Source: a virus (lineage: Duplodnaviria; Heunggongvirae; Uroviricota; Caudoviricetes). From it: a stretch of 64,000 nucleotides of DNA. Location of the stretch: IMG/VR virus record IMGVR_UViG_2529293141_000015, positions 1-64,000 of that record; one strand, written 5' to 3'. Shown piece after piece: positions 31,001-34,000 of this stretch (position 1 is the stretch's first letter; every line of letters starts with the position of its first letter). Position numbers: made by a program.

Positions 31001-34000
31001 GTCGGTATTTCATTTTCACTAATGCTGGTTGTTCTTTTTCTTTTCCTGCCCTGGATGATGTTGTCTTCGTCGGGGATGCTGGGGTAACAGTGACTGATGA
31101 CATCAGCAGAGCGCTGGCTTTGCTATTAAGTGGGTGGCGGTTGGTATCGCTGTGTCTCCGATACTGTATGGGCTGGCAAAACTGGTCATTGCGCTGAAAT
31201 CGTGAACTTTATTTAAACAGATGAGTAATGAAATTGCTGTACTGGTCCGGGCAATTCGCTGGTGGTGATATGAACCGTATTCTGTATGTGGTGATTATTG
31301 TACTGCTGGTGGCCTGTGGTGCGCTTAGTCTGGGGCTGAATCATTACCGCGATAACGCCATCACCTACAAAGCGCAGCGCGATAAAAAAGCCAGAGAGCT
31401 GGAGCTAGCAAACGCAACCATTACTGACATGCAGCAGCGCCAGCGTGATGTTGCTGCGCTTGATGCCAGATACTCAAGGGAATTAGCCGATGCGAGAGCT
31501 GAAAATGAAACTCTGCGTGCTGATGTTGCCGCTGGTCGTAAGCGCCTGCGGATCAACGCCACCTGCTCCGGTACCGTGCGTGAAGGCACCGGCACCTCCG
31601 GCGTGGATAATGCAACCGGCCCCCGACTGGCAGACACCGCTGAACGGGATTATTTCATCCTCAGAGAACGGTTGATGACAATGCAGAAGCAGCTGGAAGG
31701 GGCACAGGAATATATCCGCACTCAGTGCCTGAATTAACAGAGCCAGCTTAATCGCTGGCTTTTTCATATCTGAATTTCATCGCGCATCTCACGCGCATAT
31801 CACATCCCCGAGCCTTTCAGAAAGTTGAGCCTGAGAACTGCCGTATATGGTGGCGACCATCTCGGGGCGGCTTTTCTGTGAGACAGGCTCAATTTTCTGA
31901 AAGGTAAGACGCTATGAACTATCCGACGATTGTTAACGGTATTGATTTCCGCGATCTTGTTTTTGTGACAGGCAACGAGCCGGTGACGGATACCCGAAAG
32001 GTTGCCGTAGCATTTGGCAAAGAACACAAAGATGTATTGCGGAAAACAAGAGCCGTTGTTCAACAATGCTCAAAAGAATTTGCAGAGCGCAATTTTGCGC
32101 TTTGCTATGAAAACAATGAGTTACAGAACGGTAAACCCCAGCCCATATATCGAATGACAAAAGACGGTTGGACGATGTTGGTATTTGGTTTTACGGGGAA
32201 GGCTGCTATGACCTTTAAGGAAGCGTACATTCAGGCTTTCAACTGGATGGCTGAGCTTATTCAGCAAGGTCTGGCGAATCTGGAGGCGGAGCGCAACGCT
32301 GTAATGCTGGAGTACATGAAAGAGAAAGATGTCGCCAGTATGTCAGGTCGTTTGCTCAATCGCTGGGGCAGGGTGAAGAAGCCTCAGTTGCTGGCAAGGC
32401 TGGACAGGCTGGAGCAGCAGGGGCAGATTGCGTTACCCGGATTTGATAAAGGCATTTCAGCCTGACATAGCCATGCGCCGTATCGTCGCCGTATTCCCGC
32501 ATTAACAGAGACTGCAGCCACCTTATCTGCGTGAGTGTGCGGGGATAATCAAAAACGATGCACACCGGGTTTTCTCATTTTTCACGAGATGGGAGCGATT
32601 TCCCGCGAAGCCGCCTGTCCGGTGCGGTGGTGGAAGAAACCGGATAAAACAACCGCATTGTGCAAATATCGATCAAATATGGTGCTGCTGTGTGAAATCT
32701 GAAAAATCACAGCGGTCATTATGCATCAGTTTTTAACACAGGACGTCAGAAAGTGACATGGCAAAGCTGGACTGGAAAAAGCTGGAGCAGGCATTCCGAC
32801 GCGAACATGCCGAAACGGGAATAACATTACTGGACTGGTGCCGGAAGAAAAAGATTAATTACAACACCGCCAGAACCCGTATAAAAATGGGCAAAATCGA
32901 TCATGAAATTGATCATAAAACCGATCATGAAATCGATCATGACATCTCAGATGAAGAACCCTGCAATGACGCGGGTTCCGGCGATGAAAAATGCGCAAAA
33001 AACTCTGAAAAAAACTGCGCAAATTCGGCAGAAACGAAACGGATTCGTGGTTCCCGACTTTTACCTCCTTCAAACGCTTTTTCTCAGCGAAACACCCACG
33101 CCGTAAGACACCGTGGATATGCGAAGTATCTTGAGGCAGATAACCTCATGGATGATGCGTCCGACATGGTGCTGTTCGATGAACTGGTGTTCACCCGGGC
33201 CCGCGCACTTTCAGTAACTAAGGCACTTAAAGGGATGTTCGCCGACCTGGAAGAGGCAACTGACGTGGAAACCCGCGTTGCTCTTTACGACAAAATACTC
33301 AAAGCTGAACAGGCCCTTGACCGGAATATTGCCCGTATCGAGTCAATTGAACGCTCATTGCTGACGCTGGACGTCCTGGCTGAGACAGCACCAAAACTTC
33401 GTGCTGACCGGGAAAGAATCAACGCCGCCAGAGATAAACTCAGAGCGGAAACCGATATTCTGACCAGCCAGCGCCGGGGTGTTATTACGCCAGTCAGTGA
33501 CATCGTGTCATCGCTGCATGAAATGAGTAATTCGGGGAGACTGGATGACATTCCGGAAGAATAAAACGCGATGTGATGAACCTGCAGAAATGACTGAGAC
33601 CGAACAACGTCTGTTCATTATGACAAAACTGAGCAATCCCTGGTGGCGCCTCAATCATCTCTACAAAATACAGAACGAAAAAGGTGAACTGGTCACCTTC
33701 AGAATGCGACCGGCGCAACGTCAGTTGTTTCGTAACATGCATAATAAAAACATTATCCTGAAAGCGCGCCAGCTGGGATTTTCCACAGCCATTGATATTT
33801 ATCTTCTCGACCAGGCATTATTCATTCCGCATCTCAAATGCGGGATCGTCGCTCAGGATAAACAGGCTGCCAGTGAAATTTTCCGCACAAAAATTGCTGT
33901 ACCGTTTGATCATCTCCCTGACTGGCTGAGAGCCTCATTCACCATCGTTGAACGTCGTAGCGGTGCCAGCGGTGGCTATATCCTGTTTGGTCACGGCTCG

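Follow-up and report, generated by a model that had tools for sequence, protein, structure and literature searches.

A four-unit GATC word array in the terS linker of a 933W-type Stx phage as a candidate pac recognition array

The DNA analysed here is a stretch of 64,000 nucleotides of a Caudoviricetes virus (IMG/VR record IMGVR_UViG_2529293141_000015, positions 1 to 64,000; hereafter the window). In its late operon, after the lysis genes, the gene order is Rz (31228..31737), terS and terL, with the end of terS overlapping the start of terL directly downstream, and the same order is found in the homolog loci. The terS product matches phrog_370 "terminase small subunit" with an E value of 1.3e-124 (residues 1-268 on profile positions 1-284), and its gene shares 99% identity with the terS genes of Stx phages. 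Public records call the gene terS or terminase in 933W, VT2-Sakai, P13374 and others, and 377 homologs carry the name "terminase"; no Pfam family matches the product. The profile match and the overlap with terL bear out an earlier note on this DNA, which had taken the gene for a putative small terminase. The following features lie at the locus:

32758 to 33564, plus strand: terS, small terminase of a 933W-type Stx phage, 268 amino acids, matching phrog_370 and overlapping the start of terL
32758 to 32892, plus strand: predicted N-terminal three-helix, helix-turn-helix-like DNA-binding domain, amino acids 1-45 (AlphaFold; weak similarity to PacA)
32890 to 33129, plus strand: predicted disordered hypervariable linker, amino acids 45-124 (AlphaFold pLDDT and alignment), which holds the DNA word arrays
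32896 to 32943, no strand assigned: array of four 12-bp units with one YGATCA word per unit; candidate TerS recognition array of pac, proposed from sequence and by analogy
32992 to 32997, no strand assigned: TGCGCA word 1, read as Cys-Ala, the first of two left from an ancestral or family-type array
33016 to 33021, no strand assigned: TGCGCA word 2, 24 bp after word 1
33545 to 35251, plus strand: terL, large terminase of the "933W-type headful" class, 568 amino acids, matching phrog_38407, phrog_24361 and phrog_2 "terminase large subunit"

The four units of the array read ATCGATCATGAA, ATTGATCATAAA, ACCGATCATGAA and ATCGATCATGAC. They are in frame with terS, codon 47 beginning at 32896, and the array comprises codons 47-62, which are translated IDHE IDHK TDHE IDHD. 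The four imperfect in-frame 12-bp units with a D-H-E-I/K periodicity that the earlier note had described are indeed present; what it had overlooked is that the periodicity is a feature of the DNA, with a GATC hexamer in each unit, and that the repeat is part of a family-wide word array. Tandem Repeats Finder reports the repeat at 32894-32946 with a period of 12, 4.4 copies, 82% matches, no indels and a score of 78, as one of five tandem arrays scoring at least 50 in the whole window. The words are CGATCA at 32898-32903, TGATCA at 32910-32915, CGATCA at 32922-32927 and CGATCA at 32934-32939; the minus-strand reading is ATGATCG/A, with the hexamers TGATCG, TGATCA, TGATCG and TGATCG. The array holds four Dam GATC sites spaced exactly 12 bp apart, the densest GATC cluster of a window in which GATC is under-represented (159 observed versus 248 expected). 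Apart from these four, the stretch from -500 to +900 nt relative to the terS start contains one GATC, in a single CGATCA at -87. The units evidently arose from one another by recent duplication, and their likeness to each other consequently counts as one event and not as four.

Within the protein, AlphaFold predicts N-terminal helices at residues 6-20, 24-30 and 35-41 (pLDDT 75-88), of which the last (NTARTRI) is the putative recognition helix in this model, with the array beginning five codons past it. For residues 45-67 and 69-124 the pLDDT is below 50, falling to about 32-33 across the repeat, and it is in this segment that the TerS family alignment is hypervariable. Long helices follow at residues 127-239 (pLDDT about 90). 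When the model was compared with the PDB by Foldseek, no match reached E<=0.001, and what came up were generic coiled coils.

Is it the peptide or the DNA word that is kept in this linker? In about 45 non-redundant homologs with 37-80% amino acid identity, from E. coli, Citrobacter, Salmonella, Serratia, Yersinia, Brenneria, Dickeya and Aeromonas, terS nucleotides of about 130-300 contain five to seven TGCGCA words at a spacing of 9-14 or about 24 bp. The density of TGCGCA is 22.5 per kb in this region as compared to 0.51 per kb in the 2.5-kb flanks, and the word is read in all three frames, as x-Ala-Gln (56), Cys-Ala (21) and Met/Val/Leu-Arg (16). In a few clades another word takes the place of TGCGCA, either TTCGCA, which occurs five times in a Pectobacterium/Brenneria clade, or TGATCA, for which the two central letters are the sole difference from TGCGCA (SAQK versus SDQK). 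A Salmonella clade (57-61% identity) carries YGATCA at gene nucleotides 140, 152 and 164 (and 176 and 188), thereby matching in position and 12-bp phase both the words in the window and TGCGCA in E. coli homologs (164, 176 and 188). In a scan of viral contigs for GATCA-N7-GATCA-N7-GATCA, most of the matches listed were unrelated repeats, and 8 of the 120 loci among them fall in TerS/PacA homologs. In the enterobacterial homologs the putative recognition helix also varies with the word: [ST]ARR[YH][IL]K is found with TGCGCA, TART[RQ]IK (with one variant TARIRIK) with GATCA and SAKR[YH]IT with TTCGCA, so that R40T/Y41(R/Q) goes along with the switch from TGCGCA to GATCA. A simple code relating recognition helix to word was rejected, as P1 and two other relatives (L148 and L135) have ARRY with TGATCA, and the relation is kept as a local correlation only.

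By resampling synonymous codons, the observed number of words was compared with the expectation imposed by the protein sequence. TGCGCA occurs six to seven times in the homologs as compared to an expectation of 0.4-1.2 (P<=0.0002), and the five TTCGCA words of the Pectobacterium/Brenneria clade compare with 0.5 expected. For TGATCA in three distant relatives, L148, L135 and L182, the last being a full-length PacA homolog (BLASTP E 8e-30 to PacA), five to six words are observed and about 0.8 expected (P<=0.0005). The pac site of P1, used as positive control, gave seven versus 2.5 (P 0.0005). In the window array, GATCA is found four times where 2.6 are expected (P 0.19, terS-plus-TerL codon usage); for YGATCA the values are four and 1.2 (P 0.0075, the gene's own usage), a count of units that are duplicates and not independent. 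Resampling was therefore rejected as proof of DNA-level selection on the window's own array, and the DNA-level argument rests on the homologs and on P1.

We consider it somewhat more probable than not that the repeat serves TerS as recognition array within the pac site of this phage, with the D-H-E-I peptide as a by-product. Briefly, the four YGATCA words, lying about one helical turn apart, would constitute the recognition element of pac or the main part of it. In the proposed mechanism, the N-terminal helix-turn-helix domains of an oligomeric TerS would bind to successive words, TerS so bound would recruit TerL, and the first cut of the headful series would then be made nearby. Since a Dam site lies at the centre of each word, binding, cleavage or both would probably be sensitive to adenine methylation, in analogy to P1 pac, the cleavage of which requires Dam methylation. 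The window encodes no canonical (DPPY) Dam gene, only MT-A70-like DPPW and NPPY methyltransferases, so that methylation control, if any, would depend on the Dam of the host. The peptide would arise from reading xxY GAT CAY in frame within a linker that tolerates it, and the copy number would drift in whole 12-bp units through slippage or unequal exchange. TerS binding to the words, a packaging start at the array and a role for Dam methylation are all what we infer. Against this reading count, besides the weak resampling result for the window array, its departures from P1 and the failure of a simple helix-to-word code, the three of four words that are CGATCA and not the palindromic TGATCA, and the existence of alleles with one to seven units, which indicates that the number of words is not tightly fixed.

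Alternatively, the array could be a neutral minisatellite, an in-frame slippage product in a disordered linker that has no role at the DNA or protein level; pac would then have another location, such as the two TGCGCA words or sequence beyond terS. The copy-number comparison across homologs that the earlier note had proposed turns out in its favour, as near-identical terS genes occur as alleles with one, two, three, four, five and seven units, four being the commonest; copy number is thus variable and not invariant. Such variation in otherwise near-identical genes is what a neutral repeat would be expected to show, as are the near-identity of recently duplicated units, the predicted disorder of the linker and a GATCA count that does not significantly exceed what the D-H peptide imposes. 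However, four copies are kept in roughly at least 90% of 386 carrier genomes, and among 19 distinct full-length alleles of the Stx clade all 61 variable sites lie outside the 48-bp array. The GATC words are thus invariant, whereas TGCGCA words decay synonymously in some Stx phages, the first of the two having become TGTGCA in VT2-Sakai (L017) and TGCGCC in another allele (L034). Moreover, the Salmonella clade has the same words at the same position and in the same 12-bp phase at about 60% identity with other peptides, and the TGATCA arrays of the distant relatives and of P1 are under DNA-level constraint. Taken together, these observations make a purely neutral origin unlikely, though it deserves consideration. 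A separate observation concerns about 30 Stx2a prophage records in which the match to terS is confined to its first 177 nt. A mosaic or recombination joint at the repeat was rejected as explanation, since these truncated matches reflect an insertion of the IS3 family (IS629-like) just past the repeat.

A role of the peptide itself was also considered, in which (I/T)DH(E/K/D) would serve as a metal-binding or charge-patterned spacer and the number of units would tune the length of the linker between DNA binding and oligomerisation. Indeed, the repeat is translated, the unit number always differs by whole codon-multiples, the alleles differ in linker length, and His, Asp and Glu typically act as ligands of metals. 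Yet in the Salmonella clade, with array peptides SDQK, SDHK and NDHE, His and Gln are exchanged while the DNA word GATCA stays, most homologs have SAQK or NAQK units with neither His nor Asp, disorder is predicted for the region, and what is conserved in the homologs is a DNA hexamer in three frames. As Asp, His and Glu give way to Gln or Ala-Gln in relatives, metal binding is not supported, and of the "metal-binding or variable linker" of the earlier note only the variable linker stands, in agreement with the low pLDDT and the hypervariable alignment; a protein function is accordingly quite improbable. Least probable of all is that the array is a methylation site for a host factor, SeqA, that times late expression or replication and not packaging. 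Four GATC sites 12 bp apart would be a good SeqA target on hemimethylated DNA, and the density of the cluster, its helical-turn spacing and the depletion of GATC elsewhere agree with this reading. Most relatives, however, have TGCGCA or TTCGCA and no GATC at the same place, so that neither Dam nor SeqA can be needed for what the array does across the family, and in P1 words of this kind serve as terminase sites; SeqA could still act as an added regulatory layer.

More tentatively than for the single array, and as a possibility that we regard as less than probable, the recognition-array reading may be extended to the whole family. The 933W-type and PacA-type small terminases would then share a modular word-array pac with three to seven copies of TGCGCA, TTCGCA or TGATCA in linker codons, in any frame and at about helical-turn spacing, the specificity of which would be re-programmed by concerted changes of word and recognition helix. 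Stx phages would have the Dam-site version, making their packaging start, and hence spread and transduction, dependent on methylation. The Shiga toxin genes of EHEC reside on 933W-type phages. For these phages the 48-bp array provides a concrete pac candidate that would make the question of the initiation site testable. If it proves to be pac, it would help to account for their choice of DNA in transduction, phagemids or diagnostic constructs could use it as a minimal packaging signal, and Dam methylation would possibly gate the production of Stx-phage particles, as in P1. The retention of a hexamer in three frames across Enterobacterales and Aeromonas, with other words in some clades, further illustrates that linker-coding sequence can double as binding-site array, and the word swaps between clades offer a natural system for studying how terminase specificity changes.

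How does the array compare to known systems? The literature uses the TerL of 933W as headful reference and counts 933W-type phages among the headful packagers. A literature search found no defined pac or initiation site for 933W or Stx phages and no link between TGCGCA and a terminase, which is weak evidence as most papers in subscription journals lay outside the search. The closest parallel is pac of P1, 161 bp within pacA that contain seven TGATCA/G Dam-site hexamers bound by pacase (PMC10028697). In both phages the array lies inside the small-terminase or small-terminase-like gene just downstream of the codons for the putative N-terminal helix-turn-helix and consists of repeated TGATC(A/G) hexamers with a Dam GATC, read on the minus strand in the window. 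The P1 hexamers, at about codons 65-78 and 108-118 of pacA, are likewise translated D-H or D-Q (IIDHSNDQHAGDH), corresponding to Asp-His and Asp-Gln. In addition, the N-terminal about 100 residues of the two proteins are similar weakly but reciprocally, with E values of 3.4e-5 for TerS of the window against phrog_1711 (the PacA family), 1.9e-4 for PacA against phrog_370 and 0.009 in a further N-terminal comparison, the remainder being unaligned; an HMM of the TerS family scores 23 bits on PacA and 36 bits on L182. Weak as they are, these sequence matches suggest a distant homology of the N-termini. The differences are nevertheless considerable: P1 has two clusters (4+3), one on either side of the cut, and an IHF site in between, whereas the window has one cluster of four at exact 12-bp spacing and, downstream of it, two TGCGCA words instead of a second cluster. 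A scan of 32758-33100 with the IHF consensus WATCAANNNNTTR, the only way in which IHF sites were sought, gave no match with at most one mismatch. Furthermore, the nuclease partner is a 933W-type TerL in one case and PacB in the other, and the C-terminal two thirds of TerS have no sequence relation to PacA. The GenBank annotation of P1 pac lists the IHF site and the cleavage sites only.

The pac sites in terS of P22, SPP1/SF6 and staphylococcal pac phages also reside in a gene that holds the site its product recognises, and serve headful packaging. To our knowledge, none of them has been described as five to seven short palindromic words or with Dam sites. For P22, pac is a single asymmetric 22-bp site, as quoted in PMC11447400. 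Several short repeats as targets of a small subunit are, on the other hand, familiar from phage lambda, where the helix-turn-helix of gpNu1 binds the R-sites of cosB; cosB, however, lies outside Nu1 and serves a cos and not a headful mechanism. The arrangement as such, with the binding sites set out in an array among the linker codons of the binder's own gene, is known from the lambda ori iterons in gene O (PMC11447400), which serve replication, whereas a function in packaging is proposed for the array in the window.

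The segment at 32896-32943 consists of four 12-bp units, ATCGATCATGAA ATTGATCATAAA ACCGATCATGAA ATCGATCATGAC, and Tandem Repeats Finder (TRF) places the repeat at 32894-32946 (4.4 copies of period 12 with 82% matches; score 78). Five tandem arrays in the 64 kb reach a score of 50 or more, this one included. Read in the frame of their ORF, the units encode residues 47-62 of the small terminase TerS, IDHE-IDHK-TDHE-IDHD. The two genes concerned are:

32758..33564: terS, small terminase, 268 aa, assigned by its match to phrog_370 (E 1.3e-124)
33545..35251: large-terminase ORF (terL), overlapping the terS ORF

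The Rz lysis gene precedes terS, which is 98.9-99.6% identical to its counterparts in Stx-converting phages, among them 933W, VT2-Sakai and P13374; the phi24B match comprises the C-terminal 147 aa, and Pfam holds no family for the window TerS. The sequence with its translation, TRF, the phrog_370 match, the terL overlap, Rz and the Stx phage identity thus confirm that the fourfold repeat keeps the frame and lies in a small terminase gene, as the earlier note had claimed. Elsewhere in the window, a perfect 9-bp repeat of 7.1 copies at 3028-3091 (GCTGCACTG; TRF score 128) is the strongest tandem array, and a 36-bp repeat of 1.9 copies at 42686-42754 (AAAGGAGAGCCCGGTCAGAGAGGTCCTCAGGGTCCG), probably inside a tail-fibre gene, would if read in frame give a collagen-like Gly-X-Y stretch.

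Where in the protein does the repeat fall? Modelled by AlphaFold with 26 homologs, TerS has three short N-terminal helices (6-20, 24-30 and 35-41; pLDDT 75-88), suggestive of a helix-turn-helix-like domain, then residues 45-124 with pLDDT below 50 and long confident helices at 127-239. From the helix positions and the low pLDDT of residues 45-124, the repeat lies at the start of a predicted disordered linker, its first residue five past the putative recognition helix. Searching the PDB with the model by Foldseek gave nothing informative. The family alignment is hypervariable over the linker and conserved over the N-terminal domain and the last 160 residues.

Homologous DNA was taken from 80 IMG/VR loci and 26 loci of species-representative genomes. 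Nearly every homolog at 37-80% identity carries the palindromic hexamer TGCGCA five to seven times at gene nt ~130-300, spaced by 9-14 or about 24 bp, in E. coli, Citrobacter, Salmonella, Serratia, Yersinia, Brenneria, Dickeya and Aeromonas (loci L053, L058, L076, L084, L086-L111 and others). Its density is 22.5 per kb in the array region versus 0.51 per kb in the flanks, about 44-fold, and it is translated in all three frames, as x-Ala-Gln (56), Cys-Ala (21) or Met/Val/Leu-Arg (16). When synonymous codons were redrawn with each protein kept, 0.4-1.2 copies were expected versus 6-7 observed (P<=0.0002). This excess over the protein requirement, the use of three frames and the density relative to the flanks indicate that this stretch of terS is selected as DNA, and the 'SAQKNAQK' peptide of the homologs is a by-product of the DNA words. 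In a Pectobacterium/Brenneria/Symbiopectobacterium clade (L080, L082, L092-L094, L100, L102) five TTCGCA replace TGCGCA (0.5 expected upon resampling), ATCGCA is also present and the putative recognition helix is a different one, SAKR[YH]ITIK, which may represent a switch of packaging specificity. No published account of a terS TGCGCA array was found in a search thin on subscription-journal papers, and as far as searched the family-wide word array is previously undescribed.

In the window every unit contains YGATCA, with GATC at 32899, 32911, 32923 and 32935. These four sites within 40 bp of terS are the densest GATC cluster of the window, the second-densest having three sites near 22172, and GATC is otherwise rarer than base composition predicts (159 sites versus 248). 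Three of the four words are CGATCA, and on the minus strand all four read, in order, ATGATCG, ATGATCA, ATGATCG and ATGATCG. A lone CGATCA at 32670-32675, in the intergenic region 87 bp before terS begins, has no conserved counterpart in Salmonella GATC-type loci. Codon resampling of the window's own array, whose units are not independent of one another, is not decisive, giving four GATCA versus 2.6 expected (P 0.19) and, with the gene's own usage, four YGATCA versus 1.2 (P 0.0075).

A Salmonella clade of TerS clusters (P0023/32/50/59; 57-61% identity) has YGATCA at gene nt 140, 152 and 164 (and 176, 188), in the position and 12-bp register of the window's words; the peptides are SDQK, SDHK and NDHE, GATCA being retained while His and Gln swap. 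E. coli homologs have TGCGCA at nt 164/176/188 in the same register, and the central dinucleotide is the sole difference between TGCGCA and TGATCA (SAQK versus SDQK). Two downstream TGCGCA words of the window (32992 and 33016) read Cys-Ala and are lost by synonymous change in some Stx phages (TGTGCA in L017, TGCGCC in L034); by contrast, 19 distinct Stx-clade alleles differ at 61 sites, all of them outside the 48-bp array. A pattern scan found TGATCA arrays in the linker of more distant homologs, among them L148 and L135, encoding VISESDQFTDHVTDQH, and L182, a full-length homolog of P1 PacA (BLASTP E 8e-30) whose five TGATCA words, spaced by 12 bp, encode RDQAGDHNHDHLSDHASDH. These arrays hold 5-6 words versus about 0.8 expected from the protein (resampling, P<=0.0005). 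Enterobacterial helices and words pair as [ST]ARR[YH][IL]K with TGCGCA, TART[RQ]IK (one variant TARIRIK) with GATCA, and SAKR[YH]IT with TTCGCA. A general helix-to-word code was rejected, as it breaks at P1, L148 and L135, where ARRY is kept with TGATCA.

Copy number varies across homologs, the comparison that the earlier note had proposed. Four units are by far the commonest allele. Several Stx phages of the phage collection have a terS of 795 instead of 807 bp, by alignment exactly one unit missing. The region is present in 386 of 5,426 complete E. coli genomes (the best match per carrier reaches at least 99% identity in 348, lies at 95-99% in 22 and at 90-95% in 17), and in the listed examples of the 90-95% group it spans 138 versus 150 bp, that is three units. 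Further alleles come from protein clusters and metagenomic loci, with one unit (P0020, a partial protein), two (P0016) and five (P0025, 57 member sequences, and L037), and P0001 has seven through duplication of a 36-bp block. Gain and loss always occur in whole 12-bp steps, as expected for slippage or unequal exchange. The three-unit allele is also found in L001 (LC727843.1) and some 30 Stx2a prophage records like it, where an IS3-family element (IS629-like; transposase ORFs of 108 and 296 aa; locus 3160-4440) directly follows the repeat and cuts terS off after codon ~60; such prophages should be packaging-defective.

Most likely, we infer, the array is a candidate packaging-start (pac) site, a single cluster of Dam-site hexamers of the P1 type. 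The existence of alleles with one to seven units speaks against it, as do the single cluster, the absence of an IHF consensus, the three CGATCA words and the indecisive resampling of the window's own array, and a neutral minisatellite within a tolerant linker is a possible, if rather unlikely, alternative. A protein-level spacer that binds metal or tunes linker length is improbable given the His/Gln and Asp-His/Ala-Gln replacements and the predicted disorder; the earlier note's reading is partly supported, its variable linker standing and its metal binding not, and it missed the DNA-level meaning. Least probable is a SeqA/Dam site read by a host factor, which cannot be what the array does family-wide, as GATC is missing from most members.

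As a pac site, the array would be the recognition element for TerS, successive helix-turn-helix domains of the oligomer touching successive words on roughly one helix face, whereupon TerL would be recruited and the first cut of the headful series made nearby. 933W-type phages are taken as headful packagers from TerL phylogeny, their initiation site being stated as unknown (PMC6029569, PMC7317114), and our search, thin on subscription journals, found no paper defining it. Because a Dam site is central in each word, methylation state would probably, as in P1, modulate binding or cleavage. The methylation step would fall to host Dam, since a canonical Dam is absent from the window, which has two other methyltransferases:

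3491-4117, minus strand: MT-A70-like methyltransferase (DPPW), 208 aa, matching phrog_359 at positions 118-324 only
18376-19845, minus strand: NPPY methyltransferase, 489 aa, matching phrog_1600 and also a restriction-endonuclease family

The confined phrog_359 match suggests that the MT-A70-like enzyme may be N-terminally short.

In P1, pac comprises 161 bp inside pacA with seven TGATCA/G hexamers containing Dam sites; pacase binds these hexamers and adenine methylation controls cleavage (PMC10028697). As a positive control for resampling, P1 pac gave seven observed versus 2.5 expected (P 0.0005). The N-terminus of TerS appears distantly but reciprocally similar to PacA: TerS matches the PacA family phrog_1711 (E 3.4e-5), PacA matches phrog_370 (E 1.9e-4), BLASTP between the two gives E 0.009, and with the TerS family HMM PacA scores 23 bits and L182 scores 36. 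The P1 hexamers likewise follow the stretch that codes for the helix-turn-helix, and they read IIDH-SNDQH-AGDH and NDR-SDDH. The GenBank annotation of P1 marks an IHF site and cleavage points, whereas a scan of 32758-33100 in the window found no IHF consensus. The minus-strand words of the window equal the P1 hexamer with the 5' flank of several P1 copies, but they form a single cluster, 12-bp-phased and in tandem within a 933W-type terminase gene, where P1 has four plus three.
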